A stretch of 38,868 nt of DNA, taken from assembly GCA_048939765.1 (NCBI GenBank), contig JBHLPF010000013.1, forward strand, positions 39,207 through 78,074. Reading direction: 5' to 3'. This stretch comes from Promethearchaeota archaeon. GTDB lineage: Archaea; Asgardarchaeota; Thorarchaeia; Thorarchaeales; Thorarchaeaceae. Positions 1 to 8,679 of the stretch are shown in pieces. Position 1 is the stretch's first letter. Each line of letters opens with the position of its first letter. The notes beneath the pieces are model-generated. The model ran no database searches. It was given only the letters and a program-made list of their open reading frames with translations, and had not been told where the DNA came from. Position numbers and translations under genes: made by a program.

Positions 1-650
1 GCCTCCCTTACAACTGTTCTATCCTCGATGTTGTAATGGAGGGTGCCCCTTGAGATTAGAATCACAAGATAGAGAAATCGTCGAAGAAATTCTTCAAAGT
101 CCTCGTTGAGTATGATGTCATCAACATCTATCTTCTCTCCCACTGGAATGCCCGCTCCAAACTCTTGAGCATCTTCCAGTAGAATTGCATCCTCTGACGG
201 GAATGTATATCCATTTGGCAACGGTGCAATGGTTGGGACTTTTTCTTCAGGCGGTTCCATTCCAAGTTTGTCAATAAATTGCTTAATTCGGACCGATGAA
301 CGATCTAGTGCCGAGTGATCTAGGTGGGCTATTGATACCGGGTGGTGATATACTATCAGACCAGCTAGATCTCTCGCCGATAGAGTCTTTATTTTCGCCA
401 CATATAGCTCGGGAGAGGCGAGGACTCTCGCGAGTTCCTGCACCTTGTCTACTTTGGCTCCCAACACCTCGTTAAGCATCTCATCCATATCGAGCCTTAT
501 GCCAACTTTGGCGGTGAGCTTTTGGAGCTTCCTGTACTCAGGAGTGAGTCTGATTTCAAGCGGATCGACTCTTCCCGAACGGACAGACTCCGCTATTCTG
601 AGGATGTTCTCAGTAAATGTCTTGATTTCGCTCACAGAACTGCACCTCAT
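1..650 (-). CDS. Kleisin/ScpA-like SMC partner (3' end truncated by window edge; not in ORF track)
   Basis: Open frame from ATG 650 (ATGA overlap with the SMC stop) or GTG 635 (GAGGTG RBS 7 nt upstream) to base 1. Translation MRCSSVSEIKTFTENILRIAESVRSGRVDPLEIRLTPEY...EDFEEFLRRFLYLVILISRGTLHYNIEDRTVVRE. The N-terminal DPLEIRL resembles ScpA DPWDIDI, and the C-terminal FLYLVILISRG resembles the kleisin winged-helix FLALLxLxxxG. Confidence 0.7.
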   Translation of the reverse strand, partial: MRCSSVSEIKTFTENILRIAESVRSGRVDPLEIRLTPEYRKLQKLTAKVGIRLDMDEMLNEVLGAKVDKVQELARVLASPELYVAKIKTLSARDLAGLIVYHHPVSIAHLDHSALDRSSVRIKQFIDKLGMEPPEEKVPTIAPLPNGYTFPSEDAILLEDAQEFGAGIPVGEKIDVDDIILNEDFEEFLRRFLYLVILISRGTLHYNIEDRTVVRE

Positions 651-3600
651 TGCCCTGAGAATCTAGGACTCTCCACTATTATCGAGGGATCTGTACCGCC
701 AGGAGAAACAACGCCAAGTCTCTTGTCGGCATGCTTAAGGAGATGTGTACTTTTCGCGGGTGTGAAGAGAATGAATTGACTGCGGCGAGATGCATCATAA
801 AGAAGCTTGCTCACAGACTCTGTGTTTGTCGCATCTAGAAAGATATCTACTTCATCTAATGCATATGTCGGAGCTGGGTTGAATCTCTGTAGAGCCAATA
901 TCAGTGCTATCGCGATCAATGATCTCTCTCCTCCAGACCCCTGACTTATCTCCCCAAACTCGTCGCCCTTTATTCGGGACTTGAACTCCACACCATAGAT
1001 GCCATCTCTAAGTGTCAGGTTGAATTTAGCTCGTCCTGCAAACTCCGCAGTAGCCAAAATCTTGTTCACATTCTTCTCCACTTTGGACAGAGTTGCATTC
1101 ATTCCATTGTGATACTGGTCTCGAATGTGCTTTACAGTAGCCTCTGCTTCGAAGAGTTCAACCTTCAGTGTGTCTACCTGAATCATCAGCTCAGAGAGTC
1201 GCCCTTTCAGTCTGGACTCGGTATGAGCTACGCTCTCAGAAACATCCTCATAGTCGTCAAGGAGGTGCCGAATGCGAAGCAACTCCTGCCTTGCCGTATC
1301 TAGAGGTCTGACTGCATCAGGTCTTATCACCTTTTCAAGTTCCTGTTGAAGTCGCTTCTGCTCCTCTTCCATGTTGCGTAGCTGCTTCTGAGCCTGCAGA
1401 ACAAGAAGTCGACTGTCTTTTATCATAAGATTCAGTTCTATTAGGCGTTCTCCCACACTCCGGAGAATCTCGTTTATTCCACTCAATTCCTCCTTCAACT
1501 TGCTCTCTTTGTCGTTAGACTCCAAGAGACCTAGCTCAAGGGTCTCAATCAATTCGGTTATGGAGGCTGCTTCGCTCTTTGAATTCTTTATCTCTTCTCT
1601 CAGTTCCATAATTCGGCCTGAAAGCATTGCAATGGTTTCATTATGTGCTTTCAAGTCTGCACGTCGGCGATCTTCATCTCGCTCTGTGGCGTGAAGCCCT
1701 CGCTCAACCTTTGAGAGATCTCCCTGGAGTTTCCTCAACCTGAGTCGAATTGCTGACCTCTGCCCTGCAAGCCTGCTCCTCTCGGGTGGTTGTGAGGTGT
1801 CTAGCTTTCTCAGTTCTCTCTGTGCCTTTCCAATCTCTACCTGCAGATCTTTCAACTCGTCGTCGAAGCCTGCGATTTTCTCCTGAACAACTGGGATGCT
1901 ATCCGATAGCTTCTTCCTACGCTCCCATATGCTACTCCAGCGTGTCATATGCCCCTGCAGTTCGAGGACCTTCTCTCTCTCATTCGTTGCTCTCTCGAGT
2001 TTCTCCATCACTTGCGTGACGTTCTTTCTCGTAACAACGAGCTCTCTCTCGATCTTTAGAAGACGCGTCTGAAGAGGGGCTGTAGACACCAATCCTGATG
2101 GTGCCTTCTTTGGATGACTGATTATGCTCCTAGGAGTTACCTCAACGACTGACCCATCACGCGATACCGCCATGAGCCTATCTTTCCTAGCAACTCGTGA
2201 TGCAACTCTGCCAGTGCTGGTTAGGACGATGTCTCCAAATGCCTTTTTCAGAAGCAGTTTCTCATCCTCGTCAAGTGAGAGAATCTCCCATAGCCATCCA
2301 TCAATACCATTTCCAGATGGAAGACTTGGGGTCGATGCCTCCAGCTCGTCGTTAAGCAGGATAATTGGTGATGGTGCTTCCGACTTGTCTCTCAGCTTCA
2401 GAACCAATGCATAATCGGTTGGGTCACTCACAATGAAGGCAAAGGGTAGAGTACCGGTGAATACAGCCTCTACTGCATTTGAGTATTCATCACTCTTCAT
2501 AAGAAGTTCCACAAGCGGTCCATTTACCGAAGTCAGCTTGTGTTCGGCAATAGCGTCCTTTAGGTCCCTTACGGCGCTGGGAATACGTTCTGATGATTCG
2601 GATAACTTAACCCTGATCTCATCAATCTCCTTCTGTAACTGAGAAACCAGACTTGAATTCTGAAATCTCTGTTCATTCAGTGTGGCTATCTCTCTTTCCA
2701 GCTGGCCCTTTCGTCGAGCAAGCTCCTTCTCATCGGTTTCCTCTAAAGCCTTCCATATGTGAGCCCATTTGCTATCGATGCTCTGTAACTCCGCCTCTTC
2801 GTTTTGAAGCCGTTCTTGATGGCTCCTCAGTAGCAGGTCCTTCTTCTCGATATCACTCTGAAGTGCTTTATAGTCAATATACGCCTCAGTGCGAATCGTA
2901 TTCCATTCTTCAAATGCAGAGAGTTCCTGTTCGGTTCTGTCCAGATCTATCTCGATGGATTCAATCTCTGTGCTAATCTCTTTCCGATCCTGAAGATATT
3001 GCTCCTTATTTGCCATTGTCCTCTCGAGTTCATCCTTCGCCGCTTCCTTCTCCCGTTCTGTCTTCTTCAACTCCCTTCCAAGCTGACTAATTTCATCAAC
3101 TACACCTTTGGATTCATCCTCTATCTTCTGCATCCGTCTTCTTTCTTCATCAATACGTGCCTCAATCCCTCCAATTTCTCGTTGAAGTGATTCGAGGCGC
3201 GATTCTACTCCAGAGGCAGCCTCTTGGTTCTCTTCTATTTGGGTTTCTAGTGATTTCTGCTCATCAAGGACGGCTACCAGCCCTGATTCTCTATTTTCGA
3301 TCTCATCTCTTAGCTCTACCAGTTTAGCAAGGATGTCATCAAGAGTTGCCCATTTCACCTCAGTCTCAAGATCCTTCTCCTCTTTTTTGAGGGCCCGCTT
3401 TTTCTCTAATCTCGCAAGGTCATGTTTGAGAAGAGCGAGCTCTCTCTCCACTACCCTTGATTCATCAAGCGCCGCTTGCAGCTTATGCTGGCTATGTGCT
3501 ACCTCTGTTTCTTGGACTGCGATTCGATCTCGTACTTCGTCGAGACCTGTGCCTTCCTCAACCAGACGACGGACCTCGATGGGATTCATCTCACGTAGTG

Positions 3601-4015
3601 CATTGATCCGTTCCTGAGGCATGAATACGAGTGTGTTGTCGATATCAAGGCCCAGCGAGCTGACAAGATTCCTTAATTCCGCAGCTTTTACCCGTTTTCC
3701 ATCTACGTAGGCTTTCGGTATTCCATCGCGGTCAATGCGCCGGAGAAACGAGTGACTGATTCCTCCGTTGTTCACATTCACCTCAACTTCAGCCGAAGTG
3801 GCTCCATGCCTCACGAAGTCGCTCCATTTCGAGTAGCGTTCCTCTCGCTGGTTTGAACCAAGAGCAAACTTGATTGCGTGAAACACTGATGTCTTGCCAG
3901 AGCCGTTTGGTCCAATGATGACTGTAAGCCCAGGATCAAAGCTAACAACTCCCTTGTAAAACGAGAGGAAGTTCTTGAGCCTGACTGAACCAATGTGGAC
4001 CTTGGCCTTGCTCAC
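647..4015 (-). CDS. smc: SMC family ATPase, SMC5/6-related (hinge-type)
   Basis: Walker A GPNGSGKT, Q-loop DNTLVFMPQERI, two long coiled coils around a hinge (VNGPLVELL...AVEAVF...FAFIV), signature GSGGERS, Walker B/D-loop ALDEVDIFLD, C-terminal SQFILFTP. No CxxC zinc hook. GTG start with AGGAGG RBS. Confidence 0.93.
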   Translation of the reverse strand: MSKAKVHIGSVRLKNFLSFYKGVVSFDPGLTVIIGPNGSGKTSVFHAIKFALGSNQREERYSKWSDFVRHGATSAEVEVNVNNGGISHSFLRRIDRDGIPKAYVDGKRVKAAELRNLVSSLGLDIDNTLVFMPQERINALREMNPIEVRRLVEEGTGLDEVRDRIAVQETEVAHSQHKLQAALDESRVVERELALLKHDLARLEKKRALKKEEKDLETEVKWATLDDILAKLVELRDEIENRESGLVAVLDEQKSLETQIEENQEAASGVESRLESLQREIGGIEARIDEERRRMQKIEDESKGVVDEISQLGRELKKTEREKEAAKDELERTMANKEQYLQDRKEISTEIESIEIDLDRTEQELSAFEEWNTIRTEAYIDYKALQSDIEKKDLLLRSHQERLQNEEAELQSIDSKWAHIWKALEETDEKELARRKGQLEREIATLNEQRFQNSSLVSQLQKEIDEIRVKLSESSERIPSAVRDLKDAIAEHKLTSVNGPLVELLMKSDEYSNAVEAVFTGTLPFAFIVSDPTDYALVLKLRDKSEAPSPIILLNDELEASTPSLPSGNGIDGWLWEILSLDEDEKLLLKKAFGDIVLTSTGRVASRVARKDRLMAVSRDGSVVEVTPRSIISHPKKAPSGLVSTAPLQTRLLKIERELVVTRKNVTQVMEKLERATNEREKVLELQGHMTRWSSIWERRKKLSDSIPVVQEKIAGFDDELKDLQVEIGKAQRELRKLDTSQPPERSRLAGQRSAIRLRLRKLQGDLSKVERGLHATERDEDRRRADLKAHNETIAMLSGRIMELREEIKNSKSEAASITELIETLELGLLESNDKESKLKEELSGINEILRSVGERLIELNLMIKDSRLLVLQAQKQLRNMEEEQKRLQQELEKVIRPDAVRPLDTARQELLRIRHLLDDYEDVSESVAHTESRLKGRLSELMIQVDTLKVELFEAEATVKHIRDQYHNGMNATLSKVEKNVNKILATAEFAGRAKFNLTLRDGIYGVEFKSRIKGDEFGEISQGSGGERSLIAIALILALQRFNPAPTYALDEVDIFLDATNTESVSKLLYDASRRSQFILFTPAKSTHLLKHADKRLGVVSPGGTDPSIIVESPRFSGQ

Positions 4016-4028
4016 GCGTTGGTTCCTC

Positions 4029-5093
4029 CTACCTTCCCATTATTCTCCGCAATCTGTCATTGTTCTTTTTTGCCCTCAGTAGTCGAGTCAATCGATCCTC
4101 TGGAGTTCCCTTCATCAAGAATGGATACTCGCTAAGGTATTCAAAGTCCTTTGAAGACAAAGGAAGACTCGAGTTCAGAGCCTCTATGACTCTCTGAGTT
4201 TCTGCGTAGTTGTCGCCGACGGCTAATAGGTAGAGTTGGTCTAAGAAATCATCAGGATACTCGGGTTCGACGGCATCTATGCTTGGCACATGCCCACCTT
4301 GAATTCGGGTCACTAGGTGGTCAAACGCCCTTTTTCTCCCCACTGGAAGAACCCCGCTTTCTGCAATCATCTGTTCTAGCTTCTCTCTGGTAACTTCCTC
4401 TCCAACCTCTTCCAGGGCCAGTTTCACCGCGAGATGCCTAGTTTCAATGAAGCTCCACCCTTCACTGAGTTCTGCAGCATCTGTTGGACTGAGGTTATCT
4501 CTGCCCTTGAACGCCTTTTCAAACAAACGCACTCGGTCATCAAGTGTGGCCTTTTCCGAAACGAATGTATGGTCAAAGCTAGACAAAAGCTCGGCATCCA
4601 TCGCTTGCGGGGACGAAGTTGAAGCTATCAGAAGCACTTCATCTGCGTCCCAACTGACTCTTTCGGACTCGAGTCCGAGTAGAGCTGATTCCCGCGAATG
4701 AGCTGGAGCGATGTATTCAGCTCGGTCAATGTAAAGTATTGAGGGCGCGTTCCTTTTCGCAAACTCGAACCAGAAACTAATCGATTCTCGCACACTGTCA
4801 GACCGTCCAAGGACTCTTTCCAACCTAGGACGCACGATGTTGATTGGAATCTCACGTGATAAGTACTGCACAAATGCCTCGAAATCTGTGCCTACGCTTC
4901 CAATCAATAATACCTTCCCGCCAAATGCAAATCCTTTCTTTCTCAGGTCATCGCTCAGGTTGTCGAAACGTGATATTGATTCGTGAAACATCTTTGCCAT
5001 TTCCAAAATGGAATACTGGCTCAGGCGGTTATTGTCTAGGTCCTCAGGTCTAGTCAGAATGACCGTGTCTGCGTAGATATTGTCTTCTCCCAC
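4029..5093 (-). CDS. Degenerate (inactive) classical-clade AAA ATPase with a C-terminal helical extension
   Basis: AAA-like motifs KVLLIGSVGTDFE (Walker A), FEFAKRNAPSILYIDRAE (Walker B) and VLLIASTSSPQAMDAELLSSFD (SRH), with the catalytic residues replaced. Start reassigned from 5225 to GTG 5093, which has a GGAGAG RBS. The stop lies 13 nt before the smc start. Confidence 0.75.
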   Translation of the reverse strand: MGEDNIYADTVILTRPEDLDNNRLSQYSILEMAKMFHESISRFDNLSDDLRKKGFAFGGKVLLIGSVGTDFEAFVQYLSREIPINIVRPRLERVLGRSDSVRESISFWFEFAKRNAPSILYIDRAEYIAPAHSRESALLGLESERVSWDADEVLLIASTSSPQAMDAELLSSFDHTFVSEKATLDDRVRLFEKAFKGRDNLSPTDAAELSEGWSFIETRHLAVKLALEEVGEEVTREKLEQMIAESGVLPVGRKRAFDHLVTRIQGGHVPSIDAVEPEYPDDFLDQLYLLAVGDNYAETQRVIEALNSSLPLSSKDFEYLSEYPFLMKGTPEDRLTRLLRAKKNNDRLRRIMGR

Positions 5094-5233
5094 AGTATTA
5101 TCTCTCCGGCATGCTTGCGAACCCTGACAACTTCTGCAAATAATGTCTTCGCAGTCGACAAGAATCCGCGCCGTCCTATCGTGCCTATACACAAGGATTA
5201 AGGCACCTCTTGCGTCATCCATCATGATTCATA

Positions 5234-6946
5234 ATGAGCAGTCCGTCAGACATTCTCCGTGACAAGGTCTGGAACGCAATCACAACCGTAGAGAGTAGAG
5301 GTCTTTTCGTTCATTCAACTGATTTGGCTATTCGTTTCAAGGAAAGAGCAAGAACGAGCGACAAGGTATCCACTCGACGGTTGCCTCAGATTGTAGGTGC
5401 GTGTGTTCTTAACACACTGGTGCCCCGTTCTGCAATGCTCCTCGTGGGAGGACATGGTGGAGGTAAAACGACACTGGTGAAGCTCCTCGGAAGGATGATG
5501 ACTGGGAAAAGTCTAGATGAGATTGATGATGGAATGCTTAGAGGGCATCCACAACTAACAGAAGAGAAGATGGTGGCCACTCTTCGTCCTGGCCCACTGA
5601 TGAAGGATGGTGTGGAGGTAGTGGTATGGAGAAACTTCGTCACCGGCTTTTGGAAAATGATTGATGAGGTCAATCGACTGACTCCTCACGCTCAGAACAT
5701 TCTCCTCTCAATGCTCGCTGAGGGTGAGCTGAAATACTACGATGAGGTCAAGAAATGCGAGGAATACTGTCTGTTTGCCACTCTTAATCCCTCAGATGCT
5801 GGAACATTCGAACTGGCTCCTCCCTTCTTGGATAGGTTTGGTGTAGCTGTTCCGATTACGATGCCATCCATCAATGACCTTGAGCTCATTCTCACAACCC
5901 GAGATGAACGGCTATTCGGCTATGATGAGCTCTGGCAAGTTCCTGCAATCCTCAGTGAAGAGGATCTTCTCACTATATGGAATCTGGCTGACAAAGTACC
6001 AGTTTCCGCTAGGGCGTCGGAATATATGCGGTCATTGATCAGGGAGTTTGGCGCCTGCATTCGAACAGACAAGAGTCAGACACACGAGTTGACTGTTGAA
6101 ACTGGGCTCTGCGATGGCTGTCACTTCAATACGGCAAAGAGTGTCTGCAACAAAGTTGTGATTCCTCTTAGCGTGAGAGCCGCCAAGGACCTGAATCGGT
6201 ATGCAAAAGCTGCTGCGTGGTTGGTTGGAGCTGGGGAGGTTGGCGTTGAGATAGTGAAGTCGCTTGCTCCACTTGTCTTCTGGCATAGAACGCGTTTCAC
6301 TGGCGATGAAATGGAGCGAGCTCCGTTCTATGGTGATAGGTTTGCTTTCGCGGAGCATCTCGTAGAGCTGGCATCAACTAGGTTTGCACAAAGAGAGGCT
6401 GCAATCGAGCTCATGGAGAAATTGCGTACTGGGACCGCTCACAAAGACGCTCTTGATGAGCTAAAGGAAATGGGGAAGAGTGATCTCCTCGTCAAGATTG
6501 ACTATATCGACTTCGCAAAGGAGCTCAAAAAGAAACGCTATGTGAAAATGGTTCAGAGTATAGAGAAGGGAGTCAGAGACAAGGATGTGACCAAGCTCAC
6601 TGAAGTTCACTCCGAGCTTATGAAGGACACCGACTTCCCAAACAGAAGTGTCCTACTGAATAGAGTGTCAGAATCTCTACACAGACTAACACTCTCTCAA
6701 TTTAACATCACCTTCGAGCAATGGCAAGAGCTTTGGACTGTCATTAGTCTACGGTATCCTTCCATGACTAGTATCTTGAAGGAAACTCTCACTCCTCCCA
6801 AACGAAAAGTAGTTCGAACAGATGGGTTGACCTTGGTCATCTACGTCACTGGCGATAAGCCTGAATCTTCAGTCTTTCTTGAGATATCTGGAGGAACTGA
6901 TGCGTTAGAATTGAAAAAAGAGATTGAAACAAGCCTTAATGAATAG
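5234..6946 (+). CDS. MoxR-family AAA+ ATPase
   Basis: Walker A GGHGGGKTT, Walker B MIDEVNR, FATLNP, PFLDRF and sensor-2 SVRA; followed directly by a vWA gene. Confidence 0.85.
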   Translation: MSSPSDILRDKVWNAITTVESRGLFVHSTDLAIRFKERARTSDKVSTRRLPQIVGACVLNTLVPRSAMLLVGGHGGGKTTLVKLLGRMMTGKSLDEIDDGMLRGHPQLTEEKMVATLRPGPLMKDGVEVVVWRNFVTGFWKMIDEVNRLTPHAQNILLSMLAEGELKYYDEVKKCEEYCLFATLNPSDAGTFELAPPFLDRFGVAVPITMPSINDLELILTTRDERLFGYDELWQVPAILSEEDLLTIWNLADKVPVSARASEYMRSLIREFGACIRTDKSQTHELTVETGLCDGCHFNTAKSVCNKVVIPLSVRAAKDLNRYAKAAAWLVGAGEVGVEIVKSLAPLVFWHRTRFTGDEMERAPFYGDRFAFAEHLVELASTRFAQREAAIELMEKLRTGTAHKDALDELKEMGKSDLLVKIDYIDFAKELKKKRYVKMVQSIEKGVRDKDVTKLTEVHSELMKDTDFPNRSVLLNRVSESLHRLTLSQFNITFEQWQELWTVISLRYPSMTSILKETLTPPKRKVVRTDGLTLVIYVTGDKPESSVFLEISGGTDALELKKEIETSLNE

Positions 6947-6960
6947 GAGACTGCTGGTAG

Positions 6961-8679
6961 TTGACAGAGGCTCGGGAATTGGGCAGAAGCGATTTATTGA
7001 GTGAGGTCGCACGTCGCGCATGGGAGAGTGCGCTCGCTGACTTCTACCATCCGCCTTTGCCTGATGTCCACGTGGAGCATGTTGCAGATGCTAGCAGCTA
7101 CTTCTACATCGAAACAGATGACTGGACAGTCCATCTGAACACAGCCGGGGTGCCTCCCCATCTTGACATGAATGAGGCTGAGCCATATCTCAGATCCATA
7201 TGCCATCACGAGATTCAGCATTACTTGGTTTGTCCTTACGATACCGTGATGAATGGAATGATGTTTGCAGCAGCTAGACGCCATGTCACCGATGCAACGG
7301 CATTGTTTGTATGTAACCTGTTCGCAGATCTGGTTGTCGATTCTGCCTTGCTTAAGAGGTACACACGTCTCACTCACTCGCGTATCACATCCAACATCTT
7401 TGGTTCTTCCATGATGGGTCAAGCTCATAGCCCGCTGTGGCTCTTGATAGTGTCCTGCTATAGGGCGATGTGGGGGTTTCCGCTTCCGTCAACAGTCGCT
7501 GTAGACAAGGAAACCTACGAGGCTGCTGAGTCGATAGCATGGATTGGCCGAAAGAACATCGATAATGAAAAAAGGTGGCCCAAGGCGGTAGAGGAGATTG
7601 CGAAGATTGTGGCTCAATGGCAGCCCGATATTGATGAAACTCTTGCAGGTTGCGATGGAGCTGCTGAGCCTGGTGAAGGCCAGGTCACAGGATCTGTCTT
7701 CGTCCCGCTTGATGTAGATGCGGTGATGGGCAACCCTATCGAGATTCGGAATGGTGACCGTGCAAAGCGATGTATGAGAGATGCTGAAGACGAGGATCTT
7801 GAGAAGGAAATGGAGCGGCTAGCGGTTGAGGTTGAACAGAGAGGTGGAGACCTTAGAGACCTGGAAGCTGTCTATCTGGTTGCTGGAATAGGCTCGAAGA
7901 GGAAAGAGTGGATTCGCTTCTGGTATAGGGCAAAGGTCCGCGGTCTCTTGAGATTTGATGTAAGAGAGCAAAAAGTAGCAGGTTCTACGCCGCTGTCCAC
8001 TCAGGTCTGGCGGCTGGGGGATCCCATTGAGGAGCTTGACGTCGTACAGAGCCTGCAGTCGTTCCCTGTCTTGGTGCCTAATCTCTCTACTAGACGATGG
8101 CTCAGGACAGAGATGTACGGAGAGTTTGAATCCCACACACTTCCAGATCTATTGCTTGTGATTGACTCAAGTGGTTCAATGACTTGGTCAATGCGTGGTC
8201 CGAATGTGTCTGGGCCATACCATACTGCATTGGTTTCTGCATTTGCAGCCGTGGATATTGCTCTGCGGAAAGGGAGCCGAGTTGCTGCCATCAACTTCTC
8301 TGATGGAACTCGCATCTGTGACTGGACTAGAGAACGTTCGACAGTTGAGAAAGTGCTACTGGCATATCAAGGTGGGGGCACAGTTGCTCCAATAAAGAAG
8401 GTTTCTGATGCTTGCGATTCTGCAGGCTCTGCGGTCATGGTCCTCCTGATTACAGATGCTGAGATTGCAAACTGGAATCGACTCATCAAGTCGATGGCAA
8501 AGCTGACTCGTCGCGGTCACAAGTATTTCATGTTCCACATCGAGTCACTTGGATACGAGATTGAGGACCAAGCTCTAATCGCTATGGCCAAAGCTGGCGC
8601 CACAGTCATACCCATTGAGTCGGTCAAGGACCTTCCTGGGTTAGTTGTGAGAGAGGTAAGAGGCGTCTATAGGGCATGA
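6961..8679 (+). CDS. vWA-domain protein with an N-terminal HExxH zincin-like domain (MoxR partner)
   Basis: HHEIQH followed by NLFADLVVD at the N-terminus. C-terminal MIDAS motifs IDSSGSM, GGT and LITDAE. GGAGA RBS before the TTG start. Confidence 0.82.
   Translation: MTEARELGRSDLLSEVARRAWESALADFYHPPLPDVHVEHVADASSYFYIETDDWTVHLNTAGVPPHLDMNEAEPYLRSICHHEIQHYLVCPYDTVMNGMMFAAARRHVTDATALFVCNLFADLVVDSALLKRYTRLTHSRITSNIFGSSMMGQAHSPLWLLIVSCYRAMWGFPLPSTVAVDKETYEAAESIAWIGRKNIDNEKRWPKAVEEIAKIVAQWQPDIDETLAGCDGAAEPGEGQVTGSVFVPLDVDAVMGNPIEIRNGDRAKRCMRDAEDEDLEKEMERLAVEVEQRGGDLRDLEAVYLVAGIGSKRKEWIRFWYRAKVRGLLRFDVREQKVAGSTPLSTQVWRLGDPIEELDVVQSLQSFPVLVPNLSTRRWLRTEMYGEFESHTLPDLLLVIDSSGSMTWSMRGPNVSGPYHTALVSAFAAVDIALRKGSRVAAINFSDGTRICDWTRERSTVEKVLLAYQGGGTVAPIKKVSDACDSAGSAVMVLLITDAEIANWNRLIKSMAKLTRRGHKYFMFHIESLGYEIEDQALIAMAKAGATVIPIESVKDLPGLVVREVRGVYRA

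Follow-up and report, generated by a model that had tools for sequence, protein, structure and literature searches.

Asgard archaea are the closest archaeal relatives of eukaryotes. In these organisms and in TACK archaea, a second set, made up of an SMC (structural maintenance of chromosomes) protein, kleisin and kite, encoded in three-gene operons, has been placed with eukaryotic SMC5/6, Nse4 and Nse1/3 (PMC8665677; 10.1101/2024.01.07.573240), and Yoshinaga and Inagaki (2021) reported 80 SMC5/6-related homologs (PMC8665677). In the published view, Asgard archaea handed two plain three-subunit complexes to eukaryotes, and accessory factors are eukaryotic additions. We analysed a window of 38,868 nucleotides from a metagenome-assembled genome of Thorarchaeota (Thor), an Asgard lineage (G000:C80:39207-78074; assembly of 3.37 Mb in 108 contigs, 88.5% complete). 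Bases 1-5093 of this window carry, all on the minus strand, a gene that we call X, a second smc gene and a kleisin frame. With a probability of roughly 0.6, we consider that the window holds the 5' three-quarters of an operon X-smc-kleisin-KITE for a second, non-canonical SMC ring, of which X would be a dedicated partner.

The locus resembles the archaeal SMC5/6-related operons in that, within an Asgard genome, a second SMC stands beside the canonical complex with a probable kleisin of its own and a non-ScpB, Nse1/3-like kite of its own. It differs from the published three-subunit operons by the fourth gene, X, which heads the operon and is linked to a MoxR-type ATPase and a von Willebrand factor A (vWA) protein. 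Because SMC-kleisin-kite operons of TACK and Asgard archaea have been published, the core complex is not new. The first-pass annotation of this DNA had proposed a Smc5/6-type complex with a novel accessory subunit: the complex had already been described, while the accessory gene seems to deserve the adjective. Indeed, both X and its link to MoxR-vWA look undescribed. The terms 'AAA', 'MoxR' and 'von Willebrand' do not occur in the text of van Hooff et al. (10.1101/2024.01.07.573240), a literature search returned no paper combining SMC5, archaea and MoxR, and the combination of MoxR, 'structural maintenance of chromosomes' and archaea returned a single, unrelated paper. Public records label X, the kleisin and the KITE as hypothetical proteins.

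As in canonical archaeal and bacterial Smc-ScpA-ScpB, the genes encode a homodimer-type SMC ATPase with a hinge, a probable kleisin with a ScpA-like C-terminal winged helix and a tandem winged-helix KITE, in the order smc-kleisin-kite. Unlike in Smc-ScpA-ScpB, the canonical SMC model TIGR02169 and the Pfam models of ScpA and ScpB fail, the signature motif differs, and the canonical set lies separately on contig C26. We know of no X or MoxR partner for Smc-ScpAB. With eukaryotic Smc5/6 and its Nse5/Nse6 factors the locus shares an SMC-kleisin-KITE core to which an extra non-catalytic factor is added. This analogy is one of role only: Nse5/6 are alpha-solenoids, X combines a dead AAA fold and a helical tail, and the two are related neither in sequence nor in fold. 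Unlike in eukaryotic Smc5/6, SMC and KITE have only one gene each here and are therefore expected to form homodimers, and Nse2 and RING domains are absent.

The second SMC and its partners

The three genes are closely packed. X (4029-5093, minus strand, 354 amino acids) ends with a TAG stop at 4031-4029. The ribosome-binding site of smc, AGGAGG at 4030-4025, overlaps this stop on the same strand, and the GTG start of smc at 4015 lies 13 nt past it. At the other end of smc (647-4015, minus strand, 1122 amino acids), its TGA stop shares bases with the ATG of the kleisin-like gene within the sequence ATGA at 650-647. The kleisin-like gene (3-650, minus strand) retains 216 of about 219 codons, its C-terminus being lost to the window edge and to a 100-N scaffold gap; about 3 of its ~219 residues are missing, as judged from an 87%-identical relative. 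The strand, the overlap of stop and ribosome-binding site and the ATGA junction were all read again in the sequence, and they agree with the earlier description of three co-oriented, tightly coupled genes.

The SMC protein matches the Pfam families SMC_N (5.9e-41, residues 8-1103) and SMC_hinge (9e-6). Its Walker A motif is GPNGSGKT, its signature motif is SGGERS where canonical Asgard Smc has SGGEK, and the Walker B residues D1054 and E1055 are invariant across the alignment of the clade. The ratio of non-synonymous to synonymous substitution rates (dN/dS) is 0.05-0.09. The motifs and the hinge mark the protein as an intact ABC-type ATPase of the SMC kind. On TIGR02169 it scores 281.5 bits, under the cut-off of 729.4, while the canonical Smc of the same genome reaches 857 bits and is directly followed by ScpA and ScpB on contig C26. 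The window SMC is therefore a second paralog with partners of its own, and this genome holds only two SMC sets. A Rad50 identity is not supported either: Rad50 models give at most 67 bits against cut-offs of at least 700, a hinge is present, and the neighbours are a kleisin and X. The TIGR02169 and Rad50 scores, together with the hinge, thus keep the protein apart from both canonical Smc and Rad50, as the first-pass annotation had supposed. The best 120 proteins retrieved in a homolog search with this SMC are all from Asgard archaea.

We accept the product of 3-650 as a kleisin, on statistics that are marginal. The profile of its family, built from 19 orthologs, has as its best matches in the PDB those chains of Smc-ScpA structures that hold the C-terminal winged helix of ScpA, at E-values of marginal significance (4i99_C, 7.8e-4; 5xns_C, 5.6e-3; then 0.07 and 0.2). 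Alignment with hhalign of this family to the ScpA of the same genome is colinear from end to end (181 columns, E 2.4e-4, probability 44%). The Pfam families ScpA and Nse4 match neither the protein nor the family profile, and no other Pfam family does. The gene is under purifying selection comparable in kind to that on smc, with a dN/dS of 0.08-0.16. The profile matches to ScpA, the hhalign result and the position of the gene support the initial naming of the third gene as a kleisin.

The kleisin gene of relatives is followed by a fourth gene, which encodes about 168 amino acids and often overlaps the kleisin stop. Tests of its identity were run on the gene of a relative (87-99% identical). The AlphaFold2 model (mean predicted local distance difference test score, pLDDT, 87.3) contains two winged-helix domains, and its top 14 Foldseek matches are almost all KITE proteins: ScpB, Nse1, Nse3/MAGE, MukE and JetB. 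After VIA re-alignment, the only two matches covering both domains among the 50 listed are both Nse1, and they are weak (Z 11.1 and 9.9, root-mean-square deviation 7-9 Å). At the sequence level, hhalign detected no similarity of the family to the ScpB of the same genome, the Pfam search gave generic winged-helix families only, with the ScpB model failing, and the PDB profile search returned generic winged-helix regulators only. By these comparisons, the probable kleisin and the KITE are distant but recognisable members of their families.

In our genome, the 100-N gap begins 2 nt left of the window (L001 15105-15207), and a search of the remaining assembly with the KITE profile gave no match. 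We mapped contigs of four sediment runs, which contain 81-96% of the words of the window, to the locus of the closest relative. These source-sample contigs cover the KITE gene of the relative at about 87% likeness, with the same divergence as, and a depth similar to, the pieces covering smc and kleisin of the window, and one of them spans the junction between kleisin and KITE. Because of this matching depth and divergence, the KITE gene of this genome most likely lies inside the gap. The early guess that a KITE gene would be found beyond the left edge thus holds for the relatives, and it agrees with the source-sample contigs here. The pieces measure no more than 139-417 nt, suggesting that the assembly broke here through strain heterogeneity. 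The same gap hides the 3' end of a convergent major facilitator superfamily (MFS) transporter gene. In many species of a Thor subclade (L044-L066), an insertion of 1-4 kb separates kleisin from KITE, with open reading frames (ORFs) of 108-165 amino acids directly after the kleisin gene.

As a proxy for the affinity to SMC5/6, we compared the profile scores against PDB chains obtained with this clade and with canonical Asgard Smc. The profile of this clade scores 225-237 bits with SMC2/3/4 and 138-164 bits with SMC5/6. The canonical Asgard Smc profile scores 380-514 bits with SMC1-4 (424-514 bits with SMC2/3/4), and SMC5/6 is absent among its 60 listed matches, all of at least 85 bits. The ratio of the SMC5/6 to the SMC2/3/4 score is thus about 0.6-0.7 for this clade and below 0.2 for the canonical profile. 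The SGGERS signature is typical of SMC5/6. The relative shift of the profile scores, this signature and the Nse1-type match of the KITE fit the published SMC5/6 assignment but do not prove it. The clade may instead be an Asgard-specific extra paralog outside the SMC5/6-related lineage, which would leave the architecture as it is and make the label 'Smc5/6-type' wrong. We regard this as a possibility to be taken seriously, if on the unlikely side. In absolute terms the scores are indeed nearer to SMC2/3/4 than to SMC5/6, the C-terminal domain family of X was found only in Asgard-named records, and the literature mentions that in Asgard archaea alone the whole complex was duplicated once more. 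Against it stand the score ratio, the presence of only two SMC sets in this genome, a KITE without sequence similarity to ScpB whose whole-protein alignments go to Nse1, and the published analyses, which put the second TACK/Asgard set with SMC5/6.

X, a degenerate AAA protein upstream of smc

X matches the Pfam family AAA weakly (25 bits), and its family profile matches both AAA domains of Cdc48/p97, with E-values up to 5e-48. The AlphaFold2 model (mean pLDDT 84.8) comprises a classical AAA alpha/beta domain with its lid, a disordered linker (residues 267-276) and a three-helix C-terminal domain. For the whole of X, Foldseek ranks FtsH, PAN/Rpt, p97, Vps4 and spastin highest, with alignments that cover only the AAA part. 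X thus has the fold and the lid of a classical AAA ATPase (PF00004). It shares with Cdc48/p97/VAT the fold and the profile of one AAA domain and AAA_lid_3, and differs from them in being single-domain, in having lost the catalytic residues and the pore loop, and in its unique C-terminal domain.

The losses concern the catalytic motifs. The Walker A motif reads G-S-V-G-T-D-F where Cdc48 has GPPGSGKT, Walker B has DR instead of DE, sensor-1 has S instead of N, and X has neither of the two Arg fingers nor the aromatic pore loop of Cdc48. As far as these residues tell, X is dead as an ATPase, which is what the first reading of the DNA had claimed; with the Walker A lysine missing in this lineage, it probably cannot bind ATP. 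Its dN/dS of 0.09-0.11 is comparable to that of smc and indicates purifying selection. Only two of the 109 representatives of the X family, P0187 and P0236, keep the Walker A lysine (GPLGTGKS and GRPGTGKT), and both lack the Walker B glutamate; this suggests a stepwise decay from an ATP-binding ancestor, of which these two may be less decayed, nucleotide-binding forms.

The best conserved part of X across lineages is not the AAA domain but its last ~75 residues, which form the C-terminal domain; one of its helices is acidic-hydrophobic (YPDDFLDQLY...), and the terminal one is basic. In Jordarchaeales (Jord) and Baldrarchaeia (Baldr), the ATPase core is largely deleted, and AAA_lid_3 and the C-terminal domain are kept. 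Searched against 1.84 billion representative proteins, the C-terminal domain profile matches no more than 109 clusters, and in nearly all of them the domain stands at the C-terminus of the protein. All family members with organism names are labelled as Asgard or plainly as 'archaeon'. A search of the ESM Atlas with the domain gave scores below 0.8 only, and a single-sequence tblastn search of the genome itself revealed no paralog of X at 1e-5.

Loci were collected with the X profile, and the following counts of adjacency apply where the contig extends far enough. X lies directly upstream of the second SMC in the loci of 47 GTDB species (46 Thor, one Jord), in all of which the kleisin gene follows smc and the KITE gene comes next, either directly or past the 1-4 kb insertion. 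The same order X-smc-kleisin-KITE is found in 10 more genomes: one of the Thor-order family f2, two Jord, one Baldr, five Loki of families f9 and f24, and one of family f19. Across the lineages that keep it, SMC identity falls to 24-29%. Conversely, when 33 representative genomes from 26 families were surveyed, strong orthologs of the second SMC were found in 6 families, and all nine strong matches have X upstream (9/9). The synteny survey proposed in the first-pass annotation shows the pseudo-AAA gene next to the second SMC in several Asgard classes, the opposite of the missing conservation that was named there as refuting the idea. The f19 genome carries a variant operon (G063, L084 8694-13701), in which X has 459 amino acids and is followed by an SMC of 835 amino acids and by genes of 218 and 172 amino acids; this short SMC keeps a Walker A motif, GRNGAGKT, and a signature, SGGEKN.

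The divergent MoxR-vWA pair and the start of X

On the other side of X, two genes are transcribed from the plus strand. The first (5234-6946) encodes a MoxR-type AAA+ ATPase, which matches AAA_5 (6.4e-13) and AAA_lid_2 (3.3e-5), retains both Walker motifs intact (A, GGHGGGKT; B, IDE) and shows a dN/dS of 0.02-0.03. The second, next downstream (6961-8679), encodes a vWA protein. Its match to VWA_2 (0.002, 19.2 bits) is below the Pfam cut-off of 27, and an N-terminal HExxH motif (HEIQH) and the metal-ion-dependent adhesion site (MIDAS) motif DSSGS were read from the translation; it matches no family of NCBIfam or PADLOC. MoxR-vWA pairs such as RavA-ViaA, CbbQ-CbbO and NorQ-NorD, and eukaryotic Rea1/Midasin, are remodelling systems. 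Like them, the pair has an AAA_5-type ATPase with the gene of a vWA/MIDAS adaptor directly downstream. Unlike RavA-ViaA and the others, its proposed client is an SMC complex, for which we found no report in the literature, and its vWA protein has the N-terminal HExxH.

The pair adjoins X divergently in every sufficiently long Thor locus (46 Thor species). In Jord and Baldr, the six genes MoxR-vWA-X-smc-kleisin-KITE are co-directional with tiny spacers. Wherever the pair occurs, the vWA gene comes after MoxR. MoxR orthologs of at least 45% identity were found in 6/6 sampled families with the second SMC and in 0/20 families without it; two of these 20 have homologs of 35-39% identity. This adjacency and co-occurrence, as genomic patterns, argue for a functional link between the pair and the operon. 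Two loci show other arrangements around the pair. In a Loki f9 genome (G163, L092 8848-16543), MoxR-vWA is convergent to a canonical-type SMC of 1195 amino acids, which is followed by a 197-aa ORF, and in genome G025 (L029 12396-15890) an opposite-strand ORF of 1164 amino acids, without similarity to the SMC query, lies between MoxR and vWA.

The longest open frame of X extends to an ATG at 5225, 8 nt from the divergent MoxR gene. We rejected this 44-codon N-terminal extension as coding sequence: the alignment with more distant relatives begins only near residue 44 of the long frame, two close relatives carry an in-frame TAA inside the extension, and its variable columns number 7/17/8 at codon positions 1/2/3, without third-position bias. 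The GTG at 5093 is preceded by GGAGAG at 5107-5102 on the minus strand, 9-14 nt upstream. Farther out, a B recognition element (BRE)/TATA-like element ([CA][GA]AAG, 2-4 nt, WWAWWW) is present 51-64 nt upstream of the start of X in 39 of 43 Thor loci, compared with 1.1% of random 55-nt windows; in our window it reads CGAAGAC-ATTATTT at 5151-5138, minus strand. The alignment limits, the TAA codons, the codon-position pattern, the upstream element and GGAGAG together place the true start of X at GTG 5093, which was also the start chosen initially. With start and upstream element mapped, X leads an operon that has a promoter to itself. Its start codon is GTG or TTG and never ATG in 43/43 Thor loci (L036-L081); such starts may keep the stoichiometry of X low relative to SMC.

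The 140 bp between X and MoxR (5094-5233) form a common divergent promoter region, as seen from their conservation and the BRE/TATA-like motif. The 171-base stretch 5080-5250 has a mean column identity of 91% in six species whose coding sequences diverge with a dS of 0.6 to at least 2. Two other explanations for this conservation were tried and rejected: a small ORF, as no reading frame is conserved, and a structured RNA, as only 1/43 predicted pairs covaries. Regulatory sites of both divergent promoters are probably packed densely into the spacer.

Possible roles of X and competing explanations

The loading and release of SMC rings pose a central question, and the known regulators (Scc2/4, Wapl, Nse5/6, ParB, MatP) all differ between systems. 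We infer that X is a non-catalytic partner of the second SMC ring, as a fourth subunit or as a regulator. Its functional part would consist of the lid and, tethered by a flexible linker, the helical C-terminal domain of 75 amino acids; some lineages keep only this part. Our best guess, by analogy with the role of Nse5/6 in Smc5/6, to which X is unrelated, is that X docks through its C-terminal domain on the module formed by the SMC head/neck and the kleisin, and that it sets when the ring engages DNA. More speculatively, MoxR and the zincin-vWA adaptor could act as a motor that remodels the ring for loading, release or dismantling, the MIDAS site of the vWA protein perhaps gripping X or the kleisin. 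Taken as a whole, the proposal of a dedicated AAA+-driven machine, composed of X, MoxR and the zincin-vWA protein, that would load, unload or dismantle an SMC5/6-related ring, with X as the ring-bound, MIDAS-gripped handle, is a tentative one, and we would not expect it to be right in full.

Several observations weigh against these assignments. Much of the synteny comes from one class, so that the loci are kin and not independent of each other. In Loki, the MoxR-vWA pair sits away from the X-SMC operon, and no MoxR ortholog was found in the f19 genome despite the presence of X and the short SMC. The C-terminal domain of X is without recognisable relative, which leaves the proposed docking with no precedent among known structures. 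The label 'SMC5/6-type' draws on the literature, the score shift and the KITE match and not on a phylogeny. Fusions of X with SMC, kleisin or KITE are absent from the 109 family representatives, and the partnership of X with the ring is read from the genes. X could also work for a different machine, for instance Cdc48.

The absence of fusions and the purely genomic basis of the partnership also favour another explanation, according to which X is only a conserved neighbour, for example an inactive co-factor or substrate adaptor of a Cdc48-type unfoldase or an expression regulator, that is co-transcribed with smc without binding the SMC complex. The AAA module of X is indeed closest to Cdc48/p97. 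This explanation must, however, account for the strict one-to-one adjacency of X and smc, with overlap of stop and ribosome-binding site, across lineages down to 24-29% SMC identity, and for an X family found only in genomes or loci with the second SMC. Moreover, Jord and Baldr have kept the C-terminal domain but lost most of the AAA core, which X would need to enter a Cdc48 ring. We judge this explanation improbable.

MoxR-vWA pairs also occur in conflict systems, and the module, as an SMC-kleisin-KITE set with dedicated extra genes and with JetB among the fold matches of its KITE, resembles Wadjet (JetABCD)/MksBEFG; it might be a DNA-surveillance or anti-plasmid system of that kind, or one akin to restriction by eukaryotic SMC5/6, with MoxR and the zincin-vWA protein as its effector arm. 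This is the least credible explanation, as PADLOC assigns the locus to none of Wadjet, Lamassu and MksBEFG and matches neither X, kleisin, KITE, MoxR nor vWA (SMC receives generic SMC-head matches only), no JetA or JetB model matches, no JetD/MksG or other nuclease or Toprim gene is present, the module is single copy with extended synteny and a vertical divergence that follows taxonomy, the GC content of the region (0.476) is near that of the genome (0.469), and the MoxR dN/dS of 0.02 reflects a very strong purifying selection, unlike in fast-turnover defence genes.

If X is indeed a dedicated partner of the second ring, an SMC5/6-like complex would already have had dedicated protein helpers before eukaryogenesis. 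If the AAA+-driven machine exists as well, it would represent a class of regulator unknown for any SMC complex, in the lineage that founded the eukaryotes. X and its partners are small, expressible proteins, and Loki lineages carry the operon, so that cultured Loki strains may give experimental access to it.

Beyond the gap, at a distance of some 1.6 kb to the left of the window, a gene at L001 13089-13616 encodes a small zinc-ribbon protein (TFIIB-type; Zn_Ribbon_TF, 1.1e-7) with a C-terminal winged-helix-like part; it lies beside genes for an M14 carboxypeptidase and an MFS transporter.

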